From: Cyanobacteriota bacterium
GTDB taxonomy: Bacteria; Cyanobacteriota; Cyanobacteriia; PCC-6307; Cyanobiaceae
DNA: 64,000 nucleotides
Direction: 5' to 3'
Assembly: GCA_046052125.1 (NCBI GenBank)
Contig: JBJOMY010000003.1
Span: forward strand, 1 to 64,000
This document shows positions 6,600-25,494 of the stretch, one piece after another. Each line of letters begins with the position of its first letter. The first letter of the stretch is position 1. The notes beneath the pieces are model-generated. The model had not been told where the DNA came from. It was given only the letters and a program-made list of their open reading frames with translations, and ran no database searches. A program made the translations under genes and the position numbers.

Positions 6600-6959
6600 C
6601 ATGGTCCTTTGCGCCACGGTTTCCAGTGACGCGCTGCTGAAGAGCCAATCGTCGCCGTCGATGGGGATCAACACATCCATCGGCCGCTCGATGGTCCCCA
6701 GTGCGTTGAACCCATCCAGCAAATTGGCGAGAGCTCCGCGGTTCTCTGCGTTTCTCTGAACGCGGAAGCGATCACGAATCTCGCGGATATGAATGGAACT
6801 CAGTGCCGATTGGATGGCTGCTTCAGTGCCGTCATCGCTCGCGTCGTCAATCACGAGGCATTGCCAGTACCACCTGGTTTGCTGCTCAGCGATCGACTGA
6901 ATGCATCGCTCAATCTAGGGGGCTGCATTTCCAGTGGTGACAACAAGGCTGAACTGCAT
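6600..6959 (-). pseudogene. Glycosyltransferase family 2, nonsense-mutated and truncated
   Basis: MQFSLVVTTGNAAP*IERCIQSI...VIDDASDDGT...IDGDDWL; in-frame TAG at 6915-6917; C-terminal half missing. Confidence 0.75.
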
Positions 6960-6975
6960 GGGTCTGGGTTGCGAT

Positions 6976-7168
6976 TCAGTCCGCACTCACCAACCCGCGC
7001 CGCAGCCCGATCACCGCTGCATGCGTTCGATCCCGCGCTTGGAGCTTGCCGAGGATGTTGCTGATGTGCGTTTTGATCGTCTCCGCCGATACATCGAGGG
7101 CTTCCGCCATTTCCTTGTTGGTGTAGCCGCGGGTGAGCCACTGCAACACGTCGTGCTCCCGCTCAGAG
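6976..7168 (-). pseudogene. LuxR/NarL-type HTH fragment truncated by IS
   Basis: Manual translation (L)SEREHDVLQWLTRGYTNKEMAEALDVSAETIKTHISNILGKLQARDRTHAAVIGLRRGLV; N-terminus cut at IS end 7169. Confidence 0.85.
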
Positions 7169-7466
7169 TGAGGTGGACTGGGTTTTCTGGACAGGCCCCA
7201 TCGTTAACCTCTGAGGCGGGGTACCGCCCCTGATCGGGGCTCCCACCAATGAGCAAGCGCCGCACCCACAGCCCTGAGTTCAAGGCCCGTGTCGCCATGG
7301 AGGCGATCAGTGGCCGCAAGACGATTCAGGAGATCGCCGCTGACCACGCCATCCACCCAATCCAAGTGAGCCAGTGGAAGCGGCAGCTTCTCGATGGCGC
7401 CAGTGAGCTATTCACCCGAGGTGACGTGACCCCCTTCATTGGTCCAGGTGCAATGAGAGTGGGTGG

Positions 7467-8273
7467 TCATGCAGCAGCTGCTTGAGCTGCCTCAAGGGGT
7501 GTACGCCCCTTGAGGGCCGAATGTGGCCTGAGGTTGTTGTACTCCCAGCGCCAGCGATTGGCCAAGACCTGGGCCTCAGCCACCGTGGCAAACAGTTCAG
7601 TGTTGAGGAACTCATCCCTGAACCGGCTGTTGAACGACTCAGCAAAGCCGTTCTGCCATGGGGAGCCTGGCTCGATATAGGCGGTTGTGGTGCCGCTGTC
7701 TTTGCACCAACGCCGCAGGGCGTGGGCGATGAATTCGGGGCCGTTGTCTGAGCGGACGAACGCCTGGGCCGGGTAGAGGCTGGTGAGTTCCTCAAGCACG
7801 GCCACCACATCCTTGGCCTTGCAACGCCGTCCCACGCGGATCGCCAGGCACAGACGGCTGTGCTCATCGATCACGTTCAGGAACTTCAGCCGCAGACCAT
7901 CAGCGGTGGCGTCGAACTGAAAGTCCATGGCCCAGACCTGATGCGGGTGCTCGGCTTGGTGACGCCGCACGGAGCCGTCGGCTGGACGAGCCCGCTTCTG
8001 CTTTCTCGGTGTAGGGCGCTGGAGCCCTTCCTCGCGCCAGAGGCGGTGCACCCGTTTGTGGTTCACCGTCCAGCCCTCTCGCCGCAGTACGCGGTATGCC
8101 ATCCGCCGGCCCCAGCGGATGTGCTCGGCTGCGATTTCCCGGAGACGACGCCGCAGCTTGGCTTCCTCAATGTCGACAACTTTGCCGGCATGTCGTTGCG
8201 TGCTGCGGTGTTGGCCCACCACCCTGCAGGCGAACCGCTCTGATACCCGGAACATGGCGCGCAGGGCCACCAC
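7467..8273 (-). CDS. IS3 transposase OrfB (rve/DDE)
   Basis: WAMDF, RSDNGPEF, PWQNGFAESFN; joined to OrfA via GGGAAAC -1 slippery site near 8303-8309. Confidence 0.95.
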   Translation of the reverse strand: MVALRAMFRVSERFACRVVGQHRSTQRHAGKVVDIEEAKLRRRLREIAAEHIRWGRRMAYRVLRREGWTVNHKRVHRLWREEGLQRPTPRKQKRARPADGSVRRHQAEHPHQVWAMDFQFDATADGLRLKFLNVIDEHSRLCLAIRVGRRCKAKDVVAVLEELTSLYPAQAFVRSDNGPEFIAHALRRWCKDSGTTTAYIEPGSPWQNGFAESFNSRFRDEFLNTELFATVAEAQVLANRWRWEYNNLRPHSALKGRTPLEAAQAAAA

Positions 8274-8296
8274 GGCCCTGCGACGTCGTTCCGGGC

Positions 8297-8575
8297 TCAG
8301 AAGTTTCCCTCCGCCAACTCCTTAAGCATCGCCTTCTCCAGTTCAGCCTCGGCCAGAAGCTTCTTGAGGCGGGCGTTCTCCTTCTCCAGTTGGGTGAGCC
8401 GCTTGGCTTCCTCGGCCTGCATCCCGCCGTACTGCTGCTTCCAGCGGTGATAGGTCGGCTGGGTGACCTCGATGGCGCGGCAGACATCGGCAACAGTCTT
8501 GCCCTGAGCGATCAGCTGCTCAGCGGTTTTGAGCTTGCGGATGATCTGCTCGGCTGTGTGGCGAATTCGTTTCAT
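8297..8575 (-). CDS. IS3 transposase OrfA
   Basis: MKRIRHTAEQII...TYHRWKQQYGGM...LEKENARLKKLLAE. Confidence 0.95.
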   Translation of the reverse strand: MKRIRHTAEQIIRKLKTAEQLIAQGKTVADVCRAIEVTQPTYHRWKQQYGGMQAEEAKRLTQLEKENARLKKLLAEAELEKAMLKELAEGNF

Positions 8576-8711
8576 GGTGAAGTCCCCGGCCCAGTCTGGC
8601 CGGATGAGGACTCTCATTCACCGTGGACCGATTTCCTGGGGCCACGTCAGAGGCACGAAGAGCAAGGACAAGGAGGAAGGCCAGGCAAAAGAGGCCGAGC
8701 TGCTCCAGCAG

Positions 8712-8738
8712 TACTGCTTCGCAGAAGCCTGACGGCTA
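8712..8738 (-). repeat. Very small dispersed insertion element, copy 1
   Basis: Reverse complement TAGCCGTCAGGCTTCTGCGAAGCAGTA; interrupts OrfA QQ(I)GKLQME. Confidence 0.7.
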
Positions 8739-9264
8739 CGGAAAGCTGCAGATGGAGCTGGAGTGGCTCAAAAAAAATCTCAGCTGCTCTGATGCCCGTG
8801 AACTGCGCAAGTTGGTCGATCACGACCACCCTGAGCTCAGCGTCAGCAGGCAATGCGCGTTGTTGGGTCTGCCCAGATCGACGCTCTATTACCGGCCGAT
8901 ATCGGTGCGTGAATCGACGCTGTGGATCATGGCCAGGATCGATGCGCTCTACCTGGAGGATCCCTGCAGCGGTAGCCGCCGGATGGTGGAGTACCTGGCC
9001 CGAGAAGGGATACCGATCAGCCGTGATCGGGTACGAAACCTTATGCGCCGCATGGGTTTACGGGCGATCTACCAGAAACCCCGCACCACCATTCCAGGTG
9101 ATCCATCAGAGCGCTATCCCTGTCTGGTGGATCTCCGGCTGGTCACGGTTGTGGATCAGGTCTGGGCCACCGACATCACCTACATCCCGCTGCAGAAGGG
9201 TTTCCTCTATCTGGTGGCGATCGTGGATCTCTTCTCCAGGAACGTGCTCAGCTGGAAGCTCTCG

Positions 9265-18983: not shown

Positions 18984-19349
18984 ATGCTCACCGGTTCTGA
19001 TCTGCTCGCCAAAGTCAAAGAGTTGGGCGATGTCTCCAAATCCGATCTGGTGCGCAGCTGCGGCTACGTGAGCACCAAGAAGGATGGTGGCGAGCGTCTG
19101 AACTTCACCGCCTTCTATGAAGCCCTGCTCGAGGCCAAGGGTCTTAGCCTCGGTAACGATGGCGTGGGTCGCGGCAAAGGCGGTCGCAAGCTCAGCTACG
19201 TGGCAACAGTGCAGGGCAACGGCAACCTGTTGATCGGCAAGGCCTACACCGCCATGCTCGATCTCAAGCCCGGTGATGAGTTTGAAATCAAGCTCGGCCG
19301 GAAGCAAGTGCGCCTGATCCCCGCAGGTGGTGTGGATGAGGAGGAGTGA
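18984..19349 (+). CDS. Cyanobacterial AbrB-like transcriptional regulator
   Basis: LTGSDLLAKVKEL, CGYV, VQGNGNLLIGKAYT, PGDEFEIKLGRK. Confidence 0.9.
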   Translation: MLTGSDLLAKVKELGDVSKSDLVRSCGYVSTKKDGGERLNFTAFYEALLEAKGLSLGNDGVGRGKGGRKLSYVATVQGNGNLLIGKAYTAMLDLKPGDEFEIKLGRKQVRLIPAGGVDEEE

Positions 19350-19585
19350 TTTCAACGCGACTGCAAGAGCAGCTGCAATTCAGTGGCTCTTCTCGCAATA
19401 ACCACCAGAGCAGAACCAATTTAATTGGTTCGAAAGGGATGGAGACACGGAAGCTTCTGAGTGGCTCCATGGACAAAAGAGACCCAAGCCCCAGATCAAT
19501 AGCGAGCAGGAATAAGGAAGCAGAAAGATTTAACCCTCGGTACCAATCCATGCCCCGTGCGAGGGGAACAGCTAAGGATTGCGGG

Positions 19586-22282
19586 CTATAGGTAATTCTT
19601 ATAGAGCTGAAACAAATAGGTCATTCTGGCAGCCTCAGATTCAAACTTGAGACTGCCGTATGCCTTGTCTACCACTCGATCTAATGCCTGATGAGCTTTG
19701 CTGAGAATGGCCGGCATTGTAAGGGGATCGTAGAGCTGGGCAAGACTTGAACCCGGAAATGAAGCACGAGCATCCAGAAGCGCCTGAGCGGCTGTCTCTA
19801 CAGCTTGTTTCTGCTTCTCGCCAGGATTAAGCGGCCAGGGGAAGTTGTTGTAGACGATGCCCACGGAATAGCGATAGTCACTCTTGAGCCGGCCGCATAC
19901 AGTGCGCATCCAGGCATTGTGCATTAGCGAAGAGAGTATGCCAAAATGATATAGAGTTGCATTTGGAAGTACCTTGACCAGATTGCTGCACATCGTTGGC
20001 GGGTTCTCAAATCCGATGGGTAAATAGTATCGCCGTTCTGAGGAGGCTTCAGGAATGACCAGGAAAGAACTAGTAGGAAAGTTTTCTACATGAAAACGCG
20101 TTGGAGTGGATGCAAGCTTCTGAGTCGGTTTACTTTTGCTTGCTAGTCGAAATTGCTGCACAGCCTTAACTCTTTTTAGTGCTTCAGGCATGGCCTGCAG
20201 TTGAGCTGGCGAGCAGTCGCCGAGCCATAGGCACCATCGCTCATAGCCGTTGAGAAACTCATGGGCTCCGATCCAGCGATGAAAGCAAGGTGTGGCCAAG
20301 GGCTCCAGCTGAAGAAATAAATCACGTTCTTCGCGAGTGAAGAGATAATGACCTCCATCTATTGGTTTATTGCCAATCGCAATGTGCGGCACTGCGCAGA
20401 GGGGCTTGCTGCGGTTGAACAATGTGAGACTTGGCCCGTCCACAAGGTACGGATTAATTGTCTTAGCCTGGCTTCGCAATGGCTCGCCTTTAATGTCATC
20501 GTAGGAAAACAGCCATTTAGGTGTTATGTCTTCTGCTCCAAAACCCACGATTACACAATGAACGGCGGCCTTGCCTCGCGCTTCATTGCTCCAGCAGAAC
20601 GTTCGATGAGCAAAGAAGATATTCATACCCTGTTGCAGAATCCAGCTCCAGAGCACTCCAACCTGTTCGCCCTGGCAAATAGAGTTGGTAGAAACGAAAG
20701 CACAGCGGCTTTCACTACCAGCAATGAATCTTGCTGCCTTAACATACCAGGCCGCCACAAAATCAAGAAGCCCCGAATTCTTGATACCTCCGAACACAAT
20801 GGCTACATCGGCTTTCTGTTCGACACTTAAGAACTTGGCCCCCACAAAAGGGGGGTTGCCCATCACATAGCTGAATCGGCCAGAAGGAAGCAGAGTCGCC
20901 CAGTCGCATCTAAGTGCATTGCCATGCAGGATCGTGCTGCTGGCCTTAAGTGGGATACGGGCAAAATACATACCGAACTCTTCAGAGATCAACAGATTCA
21001 TCTGATGATCCATCAACCAGAGAGCCACCTGCGCGATTTGCGAGGGAAACTCCTCGATCTCAATGCCGTAGAACTGATCAACATTCAAGCAAATCAACTG
21101 ACTCACATCCAGCACTAACTGGTCCGAGCGGATCAAATGCTTTAGTACTTCTAGCTCCAGCAAGCGCAATTCTCTGTACGCAATGACCAGGAAATTTCCA
21201 CATCCACAGGCAGGATCTAGAAATTTCAGCTCTCTTAGTCGCTGATGGAACTCTGTGAGCCGTTTTGTCTGTCCCTTCACCTTCTCAAACTCTTCCCACA
21301 GTTGATCAAGGAACAGCGGCTTAATCAACTTGAGTATGTTGGCCTCGCTGGTGTAATGGGCACCTAAGTTCCGGCGGGCCGTGCGATCCATGATCGACTG
21401 GAACAATGAGCCAAAAATTGCCGGAGAGATCCGCCCCCAATCCAGCGCGGTGCTATCGAGCAATCCCTGGCGCATGCGTGCATCGAAACTAGCGTGAGGC
21501 AAAATCTCCGCAAATAGCAATCCATTCACATAGGGGAAAGCTGCGAGTTGCTCATCGAGATTCTTTAGGCGCTGATCAGGTGCTGTGTTCAAGACCTGAA
21601 ACAATCCACTGAGCTGCGCGGCCAGATCACTGCCATCTTCCTCAGTGCGCTGTTCAATAAACTCCTGAAACTGCTGCCTCTCGAAGATCCCTGTATCTTC
21701 AGCAAATAAGCAGAAGAGAAGTCGTACCAGATAAAGCTCCAGCTGATGTCCTTCGTAGCCCACCTCCTTCATTTGATCATGAAGGCAGCCCATAGCTTCG
21801 GCTGCCTGGATGTTGACCGGATCCTGCTCGCGAATTCGATGCCGCTGATAGCCAGCGATGAAGCCAAAAAGCTTCACGTTTTTATAAAAGTCTCTAAGAG
21901 CAAACTCATGCTGCTCATTTTCCTCCAAGTCGTAAAGACGAAATCTGCCAAAGTCTGAAACGAGGATGTATCTTGGCAGATCACGTTCGGCAATCCCTGG
22001 AAAATAATCGAGGGCTTGAGTGTATGCGCGATCGAGATCCTTGCCCCGAGACTTGTGCTCAACTAGTAGTGTTCCCTTCCAGAAAAGGTCGATAAACCCT
22101 CGTCGATCCCCCAGCTTTTTTACGGGCTCTTCAAACGAAGCTACCCGCTTGCGGCTGATACCAAAAACATAGAAGAAGCCATCCCAGAATGATTTCGCCT
22201 CAGCTTCCTCTGAGGTCTCATCTGCCCATTCTTTTGAGAAAGACAGTGCCCTGCTCTTGATCTCATTCCAACTAATGGGCAT
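19586..22282 (-). CDS. MmeI-like Type IIL/IIG restriction-methyltransferase
   Basis: IDLFWKGTLLVEHKS nuclease motif, GAHYT, FLDPACGCGNF, NPPF, C-terminal TRD (KSDYRYS, LYDPLTMP); low GC. Confidence 0.92.
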   Translation of the reverse strand: MPISWNEIKSRALSFSKEWADETSEEAEAKSFWDGFFYVFGISRKRVASFEEPVKKLGDRRGFIDLFWKGTLLVEHKSRGKDLDRAYTQALDYFPGIAERDLPRYILVSDFGRFRLYDLEENEQHEFALRDFYKNVKLFGFIAGYQRHRIREQDPVNIQAAEAMGCLHDQMKEVGYEGHQLELYLVRLLFCLFAEDTGIFERQQFQEFIEQRTEEDGSDLAAQLSGLFQVLNTAPDQRLKNLDEQLAAFPYVNGLLFAEILPHASFDARMRQGLLDSTALDWGRISPAIFGSLFQSIMDRTARRNLGAHYTSEANILKLIKPLFLDQLWEEFEKVKGQTKRLTEFHQRLRELKFLDPACGCGNFLVIAYRELRLLELEVLKHLIRSDQLVLDVSQLICLNVDQFYGIEIEEFPSQIAQVALWLMDHQMNLLISEEFGMYFARIPLKASSTILHGNALRCDWATLLPSGRFSYVMGNPPFVGAKFLSVEQKADVAIVFGGIKNSGLLDFVAAWYVKAARFIAGSESRCAFVSTNSICQGEQVGVLWSWILQQGMNIFFAHRTFCWSNEARGKAAVHCVIVGFGAEDITPKWLFSYDDIKGEPLRSQAKTINPYLVDGPSLTLFNRSKPLCAVPHIAIGNKPIDGGHYLFTREERDLFLQLEPLATPCFHRWIGAHEFLNGYERWCLWLGDCSPAQLQAMPEALKRVKAVQQFRLASKSKPTQKLASTPTRFHVENFPTSSFLVIPEASSERRYYLPIGFENPPTMCSNLVKVLPNATLYHFGILSSLMHNAWMRTVCGRLKSDYRYSVGIVYNNFPWPLNPGEKQKQAVETAAQALLDARASFPGSSLAQLYDPLTMPAILSKAHQALDRVVDKAYGSLKFESEAARMTYLFQLYKNYL

Positions 22283-22428
22283 AGGGCTCACTCTGAATTT
22301 GACTAGAAAGCATTTGTTGTATTCTAATCGCGGTGCCGAATAGCCGCCATGCAGCAACCCTTGTTTGGGGTCACTAATGCATTGTTAGCTTTGAGGTGCT
22401 AACGCTGGAGATGAGCGGCGAGTAGGCG

Positions 22429-22851
22429 TCACTTCACGCTATGTACGGTCAGCCAGGCCAACGCAAGAACGATTAAAGCGATCGGCAAGTAGTACATGAC
22501 GAGCGTTCCTGAGAGCATTGCACCAACCCATGTATTACGGGGCTGCCTCTTGAACTTGCGCGTGTCCATTGAGAAGTCAATCTGCACTTCGTCGAGTGTG
22601 CGCACATGATCGTAAAGAGCTCGAAAACATCGCTCTTGTGCGAGGAAGTACCCGGCGAGAGTCCAAAACACAAGCAATGGAAAGTAAGCGAGCATGACGT
22701 AAATTGTATTGGCGTCCTTCGCTGCTAGAGCAAACAGCGCGGCGATGAGAGTAACAGTCCACCCCTTCAGCAGAAATAGGTTCCCCGCCATGCGGTTGAT
22801 AGTCGTTTGCAGGAACTCAAGGTGCTTGTGCTTGTCGCTGTACTGGCGCAT
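22429..22851 (-). CDS. TIR-associated membrane protein (about 3 TM), putative defence effector
   Basis: KHLEFLQTTINRMAGNLFLLKGWTVTLIAALFAL...ERCFRALYD; alternative GTG start at 22878 overlaps TIR stop. Confidence 0.8.
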   Translation of the reverse strand: MRQYSDKHKHLEFLQTTINRMAGNLFLLKGWTVTLIAALFALAAKDANTIYVMLAYFPLLVFWTLAGYFLAQERCFRALYDHVRTLDEVQIDFSMDTRKFKRQPRNTWVGAMLSGTLVMYYLPIALIVLALAWLTVHSVK

Positions 22852-22874
22852 GAGTATCGACGTGTCTTTGGGGG

Positions 22875-23315
22875 TCACCGGCCAGCGGCCCTCGCTGCTT
22901 CCTCGATCCACTCCCCCATATTGTTGAAGCCATCGTCCTTCTTCCAGAGGTAGAACTTGTACCCCTTGGGGATTTCCCCGCATCGATAGGACGTATTGCC
23001 GTCAAAATCTTTGATTTTGCTGACGTCTATCCCTAGCAGGCCATTTCCTCTGGCGATGCTCTGTTCGATCTCGTATTTGACCCATCGACTTGAACAGGTC
23101 TTGGCGCCCACAAGGACCACGGTGACAGATGTGTTCAGCAGCTGTCCGTCAATCCAACGCTTGATTGCGGAATCGCCTTGCCGTTTGATTGACTCAAAGT
23201 CAGCGGCATCTACAAAGCCAGCGGCCTGGCGCCCCTGGGTCACCCAGCTATTGCGAACGACCATCGCGCGGGATACATCGAGGTACTTGAAGCTGAAGAA
23301 AACGCGTCTAGCCAA
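22875..23315 (-). CDS. TIR-domain protein (ThsB/MTH538-like, DUF1863)
   Basis: RRVFFSF, IKRWID.QL..TSVTVVLVG, RWVKYEI with catalytic Glu. Confidence 0.92.
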   Translation of the reverse strand: MARRVFFSFKYLDVSRAMVVRNSWVTQGRQAAGFVDAADFESIKRQGDSAIKRWIDGQLLNTSVTVVLVGAKTCSSRWVKYEIEQSIARGNGLLGIDVSKIKDFDGNTSYRCGEIPKGYKFYLWKKDDGFNNMGEWIEEAARAAGR

Positions 23316-23791
23316 TTTTGACTTTGCATTCGTAACTGACTATCAAATTCTAGCGTTGCTCTTGTTCGGCGCTAGGGGCGGTGTCTTGTATGCCGTAACA
23401 CCACTTAAAACGTCAGTGTAAGCCCTCTCAAGCCCATCTGAGTCCACCTGGAAAGGATAAACACACTCAGGCATTTTCCTGGGAGGCCTTTTCTCTGCTG
23501 GGCGAGGATCTTGCCCGGCTCCGCAGAAGCTACTTCAAAGCAGATCTGCCTGGCTTGGGACACCCGCTGGTTCAAGGCGAGCAACAAGCGTGAGTCTTAG
23601 TAGATTCATCTCGATGTGACCGAGCTAATCCTGAATGGTGAGGATGTCGGATCCAAGTCTCAGCACATGGCTAGTAAAACAGCGCCCGAATTTAAGGCAG
23701 CTAGCCAGGTTGGAGATCCCAGTCCTTCGGTCGGCGTCTTTAGCTATGCGCTAAATCACATTTGGGTCGAGGTGGTGTCTGTCGCTCCTGC

Positions 23792-24082
23792 TCACCTCTC
23801 CTTCAGCATCACCCCCTCCCTAAGCATGGTGACCCGATCCACCGCCACCTGCTCCACCGTTAGGTGGCTGCGGCGGAGTTCCTGCACCAGGGCACACTCA
23901 AGCTGCTCTCCTTCCAGCCAGGCTGGGACCCACTGGGTTCGGCTCATGGACAGCCAAGCCGGCCAACGCTCGGTCACGGTGTCACCGGCGGTGGTTCCCG
24001 CCACCCAGACCGTGGCGGTCTCGCCTTGCTGCAGCACGCGGTAGTGCACTCGCAGCTTGTTGTGGGGGAGGGTTGCGTTCAT
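23792..24082 (-). CDS. Hypothetical protein
   Basis: ATG overlaps Nif11 gene stop. Confidence 0.6.
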   Translation of the reverse strand: MNATLPHNKLRVHYRVLQQGETATVWVAGTTAGDTVTERWPAWLSMSRTQWVPAWLEGEQLECALVQELRRSHLTVEQVAVDRVTMLREGVMLKER

Positions 24083-24276
24083 CCCTGAGCCGCCTGCTCC
24101 TGTTCCAGCTGCTCCTCCTCCCATGCACGCTGCAGATCGATCCGCGTGATCCGATAACCGAGGCGCCGTGCCGCAAGGATCAGCTCCTTGCGTGAGCGGC
24201 AGTGCTTGAGCGCTCGTTGCAGGGCGGCGTCAGCCTCCACATCGTCCACAAAACGCTCCAGCTCGGACCAGCTCAT
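24079..24276 (-). CDS. Nif11-like leader peptide family protein
   Basis: MSWSELERFV..VEADAALQ..L...ELILAARRLGY.IT..DL. Confidence 0.85.
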   Translation of the reverse strand: MSWSELERFVDDVEADAALQRALKHCRSRKELILAARRLGYRITRIDLQRAWEEEQLEQEQAAQG

Positions 24277-24373
24277 CGGAGGGAACGCCCTGGGTCTCTC
24301 ACCATGCCAAGGGTGTCTGAGCTGCGCCAGGTTCCGTGGAACACACTGCGCCAGACCCAGCGTCAGCGCTGAG

Positions 24374-24417
24374 AAAACCGGCCGGGAGACCGGCCGGCGG
24401 GAGGCGGAGCCTCCCGA
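24374..24417 (-). terminator. Tandem hairpins with T-run
   Basis: CCGGCCGG-GAGA-CCGGCCGG and CGGGAGGC-GGA-GCCTCCCG downstream of 24424-24639. Confidence 0.5.
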
Positions 24418-24423
24418 GCTGGC

Positions 24424-24639
24424 TCAGATCACCGAGACGGTGGTGCCTTTACGGCCCTGGAAATAACGGGCCATCGCATAGGCACTTTCAGCGGGGATCA
24501 GGCGGAGCTTTTTGACCGGCTTGCCGCGGCGACCGATCGGGGTGGTGATCCGCTCATGGCCATAGGCCTTGATGCCATCGGGATAGGTGTGCAGCACCAG
24601 GAAGCGGATCTCGCAGCAGGGAGCGGTGGGGCGTGCCAT
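24424..24639 (-). CDS. Small basic hypothetical protein
   Basis: MARPTAPCCEIRFLVLHTYPDG... Confidence 0.65.
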   Translation of the reverse strand: MARPTAPCCEIRFLVLHTYPDGIKAYGHERITTPIGRRGKPVKKLRLIPAESAYAMARYFQGRKGTTVSVI

Positions 24640-25103
24640 GGAAGGAAAAGGCGTAGAACACCCCGACCGAGGCCCGCTGGGGCAGAGGCGGCAAGGACTG
24701 CGCAGCAGCCCGGCCTGATCCTTGCCGCCTCTGACGCAGTGGGCACGCTGGGAGGGTCCACGCCGCTTCCATGGCACGCGCCGCCGCGGCTGTGTGGTGA
24801 GCCGAGCGCTGGTGCGGACCGTCAGGGGGGATCCAGGCCGGCGGGTGTTGGCGGATCACCAAGGGTGAGCAGTCCGCAAGATGCATCCCACCGGCTCCAG
24901 GCGCACCGCAAGAAGCGCCGCGCCGGGCACCTCCAGGATCGCCCCTGGTCAAGGGCTGACGCGAGGCGAGCTGACTGGTTGGTTTGGCGCGATCGCCCCG
25001 GCGGTGCCGGTGCTCACCGCGCATCGGCGGATGGACTCGCCCCTTGACTGGCGGGGCGGTCCTGAAGGCGTCCCGTCGCTGCGCCGTAGGGCGTCAGAGC
25101 GTC

Positions 25104-25379
25104 ATGGCTACGCATGTTCTGGGGTATGGCCCCGAGGATCCGGTTGGTCTGGTGGAGTCTTGCTATCGGGCCGTGGAGTGGATCCTTGCCACCCATGCCG
25201 CCAAGGGGGCATTGATCCCCAGGCCCTGGATCGATCACCCCTATGGGGAGGAGGAGATCACCCTGCTCGAGGAGGAGCTGCTGCCAGCGATGGCGGTGTT
25301 CCTCGCTCGGGTTGATGCGATTGATCGGGCGATTGAGGCTGATCAGGAGCTCGAGGTGGCTGCCCACCAGGCCCGCTGA
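25104..25379 (+). CDS. Hypothetical protein
   Basis: MATHVLGYGPEDP...; diverged copy of its 3' end at 27520-27608 keeps the frame and stop. Confidence 0.75.
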   Translation: MATHVLGYGPEDPVGLVESCYRAVEWILATHAAKGALIPRPWIDHPYGEEEITLLEEELLPAMAVFLARVDAIDRAIEADQELEVAAHQAR

Positions 25380-25494
25380 GGGCCAGGCCGGCGGTGGCCG
25401 GCCTTTTCTGCTGCTCCCGTAGCCACGTCAGCCGGGCGGACAGCAGGGTTTCCTCTCAGGAGTGCAGCCGCTGAAGGGATGCTTCCCAACACGG

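Follow-up and report, generated by a model that had tools for sequence, protein, structure and literature searches.

Twenty-nine types of the Thoeris anti-phage system have been predicted, and types V to XI have been verified (Yirmiya et al., bioRxiv 10.64898/2025.12.03.692087). According to that preprint, the effectors of types II, V, VII and X are membrane proteins, and the combination of a TIR protein with a membrane-only effector was verified experimentally for types V, VII and X. Type V consists of ThsB and ThsF, a DUF2270 (PF10028) protein that spans the membrane with three helices and lacks a separate sensor domain; ThsF is triggered by 3' cyclic ADP-ribose (3'cADPR) and, in a model, forms a heptameric channel whose protomers have basic pockets between them. 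Type V TIRs cluster with type I TIRs, and one verified type V system came from the Bacillus cereus group. Type VII pairs canonical cyclic ADP-ribose (cADPR) with the SLATT membrane effector ThsH, which is thought to oligomerise on binding, and the type X effector is an ion channel. In a second body of work, Payne et al. (bioRxiv 10.1101/2024.01.29.577857) used 'guilt by embedding' to find 145 untested candidate systems, named phage defence candidate (PDC) systems. Here we describe a gene pair, encoding a ThsB-type TIR protein and a small membrane protein, from a 64,000-nucleotide stretch of a cyanobacterial genome (family Cyanobiaceae; assembly GCA_046052125.1, contig JBJOMY010000003.1, positions 1 to 64,000). 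We refer to this whole stretch as the window.

We consider it likely that the two genes form a Thoeris-type anti-phage module, in which the TIR protein makes a nucleotide signal that causes the membrane protein to open or assemble, with death or arrest of the infected cell as the outcome. This reading is based on the domain identities, the retained glutamate of the TIR, the conserved pairing of the two genes and their setting in an island. It is supported by that pairing, by fusions of the membrane domain, by the match to ThsB, by the listing of the pair as a PADLOC candidate, by the published precedent, by the position of the pair beside a restriction enzyme in a low-GC, strain-specific island, by the absence of SIR2_2 and Macro matches from the genome, and by the three hydrophobic helices with a confident monomer model.

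Both proteins belong to candidate PDC-M50 of PADLOC-DB v2.0.0: one matches its A models, the other its B model, and the genes are adjacent on one strand. The models were matched over nearly their whole length, and no feature that we tested distinguishes the pair from PDC-M50. To judge from its name, PDC-M50 probably stems from the 145 candidates (10.1101/2024.01.29.577857), the main text of that preprint being without the name itself. We conclude that the pair is a member of a catalogued candidate family and that, in design, it agrees with published Thoeris types whose effectors lie in the membrane. An earlier first-pass annotation of the sequence had taken the pair to be new. This claim is not supported, as the pair is already catalogued and TIR proteins with membrane-only effectors are verified as Thoeris V, VII and X. 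As to whether the pair matches an already described system, a question raised by the same annotation, it does so as a catalogued candidate; a published mechanism or test was not found.

The first-pass annotation had described a ThsB-like TIR with its catalytic glutamate, a partner of about 140 amino acids with three transmembrane helices, a cassette of low guanine-plus-cytosine (GC) content and an MmeI-like gene, and all of these were present where it had placed them. The features of the pair are as follows.

22875-23315, minus strand: gene for the ThsB-type TIR protein, an open reading frame of 146 amino acids with a TTG start read as methionine.
23070-23072, minus strand: GAG codon of Glu82, in the WVKYEI motif of the TIR protein; predicted catalytic residue.
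22429-22851, minus strand: gene for the membrane protein of the PDC-M50A family, 140 amino acids from an ATG, with three predicted transmembrane helices.
22654-22656, minus strand: codon 66 (GCC) of the membrane protein, encoding Ala in place of the Asp seen in almost all relatives.

The N-terminus that follows from the TTG start of the TIR gene, MARRVFFSF, agrees with those of homologs. The TIR protein matched the Pfam family ThsB_TIR (PF08937; 3.1e-22, 79.3 bits against a cut-off of 21.2), the PADLOC ThsB model PDLC00431 (7.5e-57) and, over residues 2-143, the PDC-M50B model PDLC04688 (6.1e-46). Its best matches among solved structures were 9b7d ('cyclic ADP-D-ribose synthase ThsB1') and 6lhy (E 3.5e-31, residues 1-136), both of which we take to be Bacillus cereus type I ThsB; a hand count of the alignment gave 65 identities in 136 aligned residues. 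Glu82 aligned with the glutamate of RWVRYEI in both structures, presumably the catalytic residue of ThsB. The general mark of Thoeris, a ThsB-type TIR domain with the predicted catalytic glutamate retained, is present. By its sequence, we conclude that the TIR protein is of the ThsB signal-making type.

The membrane protein (P0002) matched the PADLOC PDC-M50A model PDLC04686 (2.5e-49), residues 6-133 aligning with positions 4-130 of the 134 in the model, and three further PDC-M50A models as well. Its gene follows the TIR gene directly, with 23 nucleotides between them if translation begins at the ATG. The longest frame opens at 22983, within the TIR gene, and the first in-frame ATG past the TIR stop codon is at 22851. 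This frame also has a GTG at 22878, which overlaps that stop as GTGA (22875-22878) and would give 149 amino acids instead of 140; it could be a translationally coupled alternative start, and a 97%-identical homolog (P0003) has the 149 amino acids expected from it. We favour the ATG because homologs of 140 amino acids cover the query fully, without regarding the start as settled.

A 19-residue Kyte-Doolittle scan found hydrophobic segments at about residues 25-44, 49-71 and 109-140. Lysines and arginines number five within residues 1-30 and eight within residues 71-111, suggesting a topology of three transmembrane helices with the N-terminus inside and the C-terminus outside. An AlphaFold2 model of the monomer, built from a 76-sequence alignment, had a mean predicted local distance difference test score (pLDDT) of 95.8 and helices at 5-46, 50-85 and 115-138, the first two of which run on, in the model, from the membrane into the cytoplasm. 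A complex prediction with four copies (alignment A1) scored 0.24 against a mark of 0.42, in a run without controls. Invariant or near-invariant positions in the 76-sequence alignment were H10, L11, Q15, R20, S25, F26, K29, W31, F62, W63, L65, D66, L70, E73, R77, L79, Y80 and S114. The family consensus, KHLExIQxVIxRMAxNSFLLKGW, corresponds to the motif KHLEF..RMA.N.F..KGW picked out in the first-pass annotation.

The family of this membrane protein is large, with 2218 clusters of relatives at 90% identity and 3865 representatives at 50% identity (E<=0.001). A scan of one genome per species yielded 47 loci encoding relatives, from Pseudomonadota, Gemmatimonadota, Planctomycetota, Chloroflexota, Myxococcota, Actinomycetota and Patescibacteria. 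When these were searched by tblastn with the window's TIR, a same-strand TIR gene adjoined the membrane gene in 42 of 47 loci, bearing out the first-pass expectation that the two genes co-occur across genomes. Two of the five loci without a TIR are contig ends (L018, L040), and in the other three the membrane gene is truncated and fused (L033), degenerate (L042) or frameshifted (L047). The median gap between the aligned TIR and membrane segments was 73 nucleotides. On viral contigs, tblastn found a TIR in 17 of 31 loci, and Pfam TIR matches were present in eight more (L088, L089, L095, L100, L102 and L105, with L101 and L107 weak). We conclude that the pairing of TIR and membrane protein is not due to chance.

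Gene order varied among the genome loci: the membrane gene preceded the TIR gene in 25, the window's order of TIR gene first was found in eight, and in nine the membrane gene lay between two TIR genes. Several TIRs per effector is the pattern seen in Thoeris. The TIR partners ranged from 28 to 83% identity to the window's TIR (P0001). This diversity bears on the idea that the TIR protein acts by contact, binding the membrane protein to keep it closed or to open it, much as in a toxin-antitoxin pair and without a diffusible signal. The tight linkage of the genes, the possible translational coupling through the GTGA overlap and the very small size of the effector would all suit such an arrangement. 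A conserved protein interface is hard to reconcile with partners this diverse, which include TIR_2 and Roc-COR-TIR proteins; in addition, the predicted catalytic glutamate is kept, and a Pfam scan of 12 longer relatives of the membrane protein found no TIR-membrane fusion among them. We regard direct gating as very improbable, and the first-pass alternative that the TIR itself gates a pore gains no support from the context.

Some related loci contain further genes. On viral contig L088 (184-2785), a 706-amino-acid Roc-COR-TIR protein is encoded directly upstream of the membrane-protein relative. At L098 (3986-5433), the relative is followed by a 347-amino-acid prokaryotic STING protein (PF20300, 2.6e-09), with no recognisable ThsB. 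About 16 loci, mostly named Burkholderiales-type, encode two TIR_2 proteins (about 167 and 378 amino acids) and a SLOG cluster 3 protein (PF18180, 1.7e-57) upstream; examples of such multi-TIR clusters are L007 (2819-5107), L011, L013, L019, L020, L024, L029, L031 and L036. Other gene families are shared upstream by some related loci, and c9 and c10 of L018, L021 and L027 are likely, by sequence, to be a type I restriction system. At L033 (5965-6513), the third helix is lost and the tail resembles the C-terminus of a tyrosine recombinase (integrase-like), suggesting that a mobile element disrupted the gene.

Among the 12 longer relatives, one (P0147, 378 amino acids) carries a Pfam SLOG cluster 2 domain at residues 10-198 followed by the membrane domain at 246-371. 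A second (P0140, 362 amino acids) has the same layout by sequence likeness to P0147, with no Pfam family matched. These rare fusions support an effector role for the PDC-M50A domain, which is used in them as the output of a nucleotide-sensor domain. A scan of metagenome contigs with P0147, in which only the membrane part was matched, gave 26 loci; a TIR was found in 17 of them and a full SLOG-membrane fusion locus in none. In layout, P0147 and P0140 resemble a ThsA-like effector in which a membrane output stands where SIR2 would be. A separate SLOG-like gene lies near the membrane-TIR pair of L125. In another longer relative (P0186, predicted at 351 amino acids), the PDC-M50A domain is combined with an 8xMP domain ('octameric membrane protein'; PF24838, 1.6e-27); the two may be truly fused, or a single call may have run two genes together.

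The roles could also be reversed, with the membrane protein as a sensor or anchor that responds to envelope damage or phage DNA entry and the TIR protein as an effector that depletes nicotinamide adenine dinucleotide (NAD+). Stand-alone TIR NADase effectors are described from bacteria (10.64898/2025.12.03.692087), and a membrane protein with no recognised ligand-binding domain would fit this logic. Four results run counter to it. The TIR is of the ThsB signal-making type; the nine of 47 loci with two different TIRs around one membrane protein fit several sensors feeding one effector; the SLOG-membrane fusions put the membrane domain downstream of a nucleotide sensor; and the verified systems of like design use the membrane protein as the killer. 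We consider reversed roles quite improbable.

Under the Thoeris-type reading, we infer the signal, its binding site, the oligomerisation and defence itself as follows. The TIR protein would be both sensor and signal maker, converting NAD+ on infection into a messenger derived from ADP-ribose. This messenger would be a cyclic ADP-ribose isomer, and 3'cADPR is our first guess because the TIR is close to solved type I ThsB. The 140-amino-acid protein would be the effector. A putative basic binding site may be formed by its conserved polar residues H10, Q15, R20, K29, E73, R77 and Y80, which lie in the cytoplasmic N-terminal helix and in the extended part of helix 2. Binding would cause the membrane protein to assemble or open, and the resulting breach of the membrane would stop phage growth by killing or arresting the cell.

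We compared the pair with the known Thoeris types. Types I and II resemble it in the TIR, which matches solved ThsB with the glutamate aligned, and differ in the effector, which is a SIR2-SLOG ThsA or a Macro protein with transmembrane helices as opposed to a bare membrane protein. The window's genome (2.64 Mb in 10 contigs, 99.96% complete) encodes one ThsB_TIR protein. We found in it no SIR2_2 domain (PF13289), by which the ThsA of type I is recognised, and no Macro domain (PF01661), by which type II is recognised and for which controls were positive in 8 of 14 genomes; no SLOG cluster 2 domain (PF18163) was found either, a weak blank given that the control genomes were silent too. Apart from the weakness of this last blank, the first-pass description of a Thoeris-like pair without ThsA holds. 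The SLATT effectors of type VII and of cyclic oligonucleotide-based anti-phage signalling systems (CBASS) resemble the window's protein in being small membrane effectors, partnered by a TIR in type VII, with a domain that is found fused to SLOG. They have two helices, whereas P0002 has three; no SLATT Pfam family matched P0002 at E<=1, and none was among the 25 families listed as most often hit by the 76 aligned members.

Type V is the closest in design. Like the window's pair, it consists of two genes in an operon, one for a ThsB-type TIR and one for a small three-helix effector without a separate sensor domain, and the AlphaFold2 model, the hydropathy scan, Pfam and NCBIfam all assign these effector features to P0002. 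Its TIRs cluster with those of type I, and the window's TIR is close to solved type I-like ThsB. A relaxed alignment of the family with DUF2270 is co-linear through R20 (R..NW/GW), helix 1, helix 2 and FL.xE.R.(F/Y)R. Unlike ThsF, P0002 had no PF10028 hit at E<=1, and DUF2270 was found in none of 301 genomes of the phylum, the window's own included (E<=0.001). PDC-M50 does not appear in the PADLOC results given by a survey of 6354 B. cereus group genomes and its supplements, the group from which a verified type V system comes. One relative (P0228) just reached the PF10028 cut-off of 25 with 25.2 bits, in an alignment that spans helices 1 and 2 and the helix after them; PF10028 is absent from all 119 relatives listed for it. 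As a comparison set, we collected 22 canonical DUF2270 proteins from 401 Pseudomonadota genomes. Local hidden Markov model searches between the family and DUF2270 reached only about 13-15 bits, and the 22 canonical genes had no convincing TIR neighbour within 1.5 kb, the sole hit having an E of 0.008. Four DUF2270 loci were found on viral contigs, three of them from giant-virus bins. Weak hits to DUF3278 were seen in 21 of the 76 family members. In the ESM Atlas, the clusters nearest P0002 have no common Pfam family; the nearest that has one is 8xMP at 0.85, which we treat as a lead only. Literature searches for 'DUF2270' found nothing beyond the Yirmiya preprint, and '8xMP' gave only unrelated PDB codes. 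From these sequence comparisons, it is possible that the effector family is a distant relative of ThsF.

Several results weigh against the Thoeris-type reading. No Pfam or NCBIfam family exceeded its cut-off for P0002, leaving it without a recognised ligand-binding domain, as the first-pass annotation had also stated. Likeness to DUF2270 is marginal, with weak PF10028 hits in 19 of 76 family members and one at the cut-off, and hhalign of the family against the 22 canonical DUF2270 proteins gave a probability of 5.7%, which is not significant. A Foldseek search of the P0002 model against the PDB gave no match at E<=0.001. In VIA-align (wide), the matches were confined to coiled coils and long hairpins of helices, ESCRT-III among them, and the best Z of 9.3 is below the meaningful level for helical proteins; the modelled fold resembles generic helical hairpins only. 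The name 'PDC-M50' is absent from searchable paper texts, and we found no published experiment on the family. A cold-seep paper tested other PDC systems, M50 not among them. Two metatranscriptome runs yielded contigs with exact matches to the TIR gene, over 194 and 151 bases, and left the membrane gene uncovered; these RNA-library contigs do not establish transcription, as DNA carry-over is possible. Finally, the window's copy may be altered, weakened or differently gated, because Ala66 replaces a near-invariant Asp in helix 2.

Position 66 is Asp in nearly all of 390 aligned relatives; the only two with Ala are P0002 and P0003, which are 97% identical. The codons involved, GCC and GAC, are one base apart. 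We found near-identical DNA in sequencing runs: 13 of them contain at least half of the sampled words, and two of these runs may be the source sample. Contigs from runs X3 (5 differences in 1101 bases) and X5 (2 differences), both from other studies, span codon 66 without change, and we conclude that Ala66 is stable in this lineage. The other near-invariant residues are kept in P0002 with the exception of position 25, which is Leu throughout the close subclade.

These data also bear on whether this copy is a decaying or silent remnant, inactive through Asp66Ala, of a family that is otherwise a defence system. The rarity of Ala66, confined to two near-identical sequences, is what decay might look like, and broken membrane genes do occur elsewhere (L033, L042, L047). 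A remnant fits poorly with two intact reading frames, with near-identical DNA bearing the same codon in the X3 and X5 contigs, with the spread over 13 runs and with the retention of all near-invariant residues other than position 25. We consider it unlikely that the copy is a remnant. A further reading, less likely than not, is that PDC-M50A, with its at least 3865 representatives and a TIR gene beside it almost everywhere, is a self-contained receptor-and-pore of 140 residues for a TIR-made nucleotide. It would then be distinct from ThsF and ThsH and represent a further Thoeris type, possibly with its own signal, and Asp66Ala would be a natural variant, carried by the picocyanobacterial lineage, at a residue important for gating.

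The pair lies in an island together with a restriction gene.

19419-23786, no strand: low-GC island with the TIR pair and the restriction gene, delimited by GC profile and DNA search.
19586-22357, minus strand: MmeI-like type IIG restriction-modification gene, an open reading frame of 923 amino acids with five MmeI Pfam domains, matching PADLOC REase_MTase_IIG.

The island is about 4.4 kb long, and its GC content is 0.49-0.53 across 19500-23500 compared with 0.62-0.67 on both sides. Among the matches listed, which cover positions 510-2419 and 6788-9001 of the query and leave 22 further matches outside, no DNA match to 19419-23786 was found in 12 same-genus genomes or elsewhere in its own genome. 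The membrane-protein family was found in 7 of 301 genomes of the phylum, including the window's, and in none of 13 other genomes of the same taxonomic family. The closest genome-borne pair (L009) is in a betaproteobacterial bin, with 83% identity in the TIR and 74% in the membrane protein. The drop in GC, the unmatched island in same-genus DNA, the sparse occurrence of the family in the phylum and the betaproteobacterial closest pair indicate that the island was horizontally acquired.

The MmeI-type gene has all five MmeI Pfam domains and scored 1199.5 bits with PADLOC REase_MTase_IIG; an internal methionine after the first 25 codons may be its true start. We rejected this gene as a third component of the system, since an MmeI-like gene was found in 0 of 82 related loci (47 genome loci, 31 viral membrane-protein loci and 4 viral DUF2270 loci); it is an island neighbour only. 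A scan of 22200-23800 for promoters and terminators gave nothing above chance. At the flank of the island, a 121-amino-acid open reading frame (18984-19349) resembles an AbrB-type protein by reading alone. This segment and 24045-25420 have many copies of 70-93% identity in the window's genome and in same-genus genomes, and the island is thus bordered on both sides by multi-copy DNA.

The concept of a TIR protein with a membrane effector is already published, and the present finding adds a family member and family-level detail, not a new principle. The family itself is very large and spans many phyla, with no experiment found in searchable papers. If the Thoeris-type reading is true, few known receptor-effectors of bacterial nucleotide signalling would be as small as this membrane protein. 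The TIR product would be read by about 70 cytoplasmic residues and the killing done by three helices, which would make the protein a compact model of the way in which membrane effectors are opened by signals derived from ADP-ribose. For the organism, if the pair works as proposed, a freshwater picocyanobacterium would have acquired a foreign defence island that combines restriction with abortive infection.

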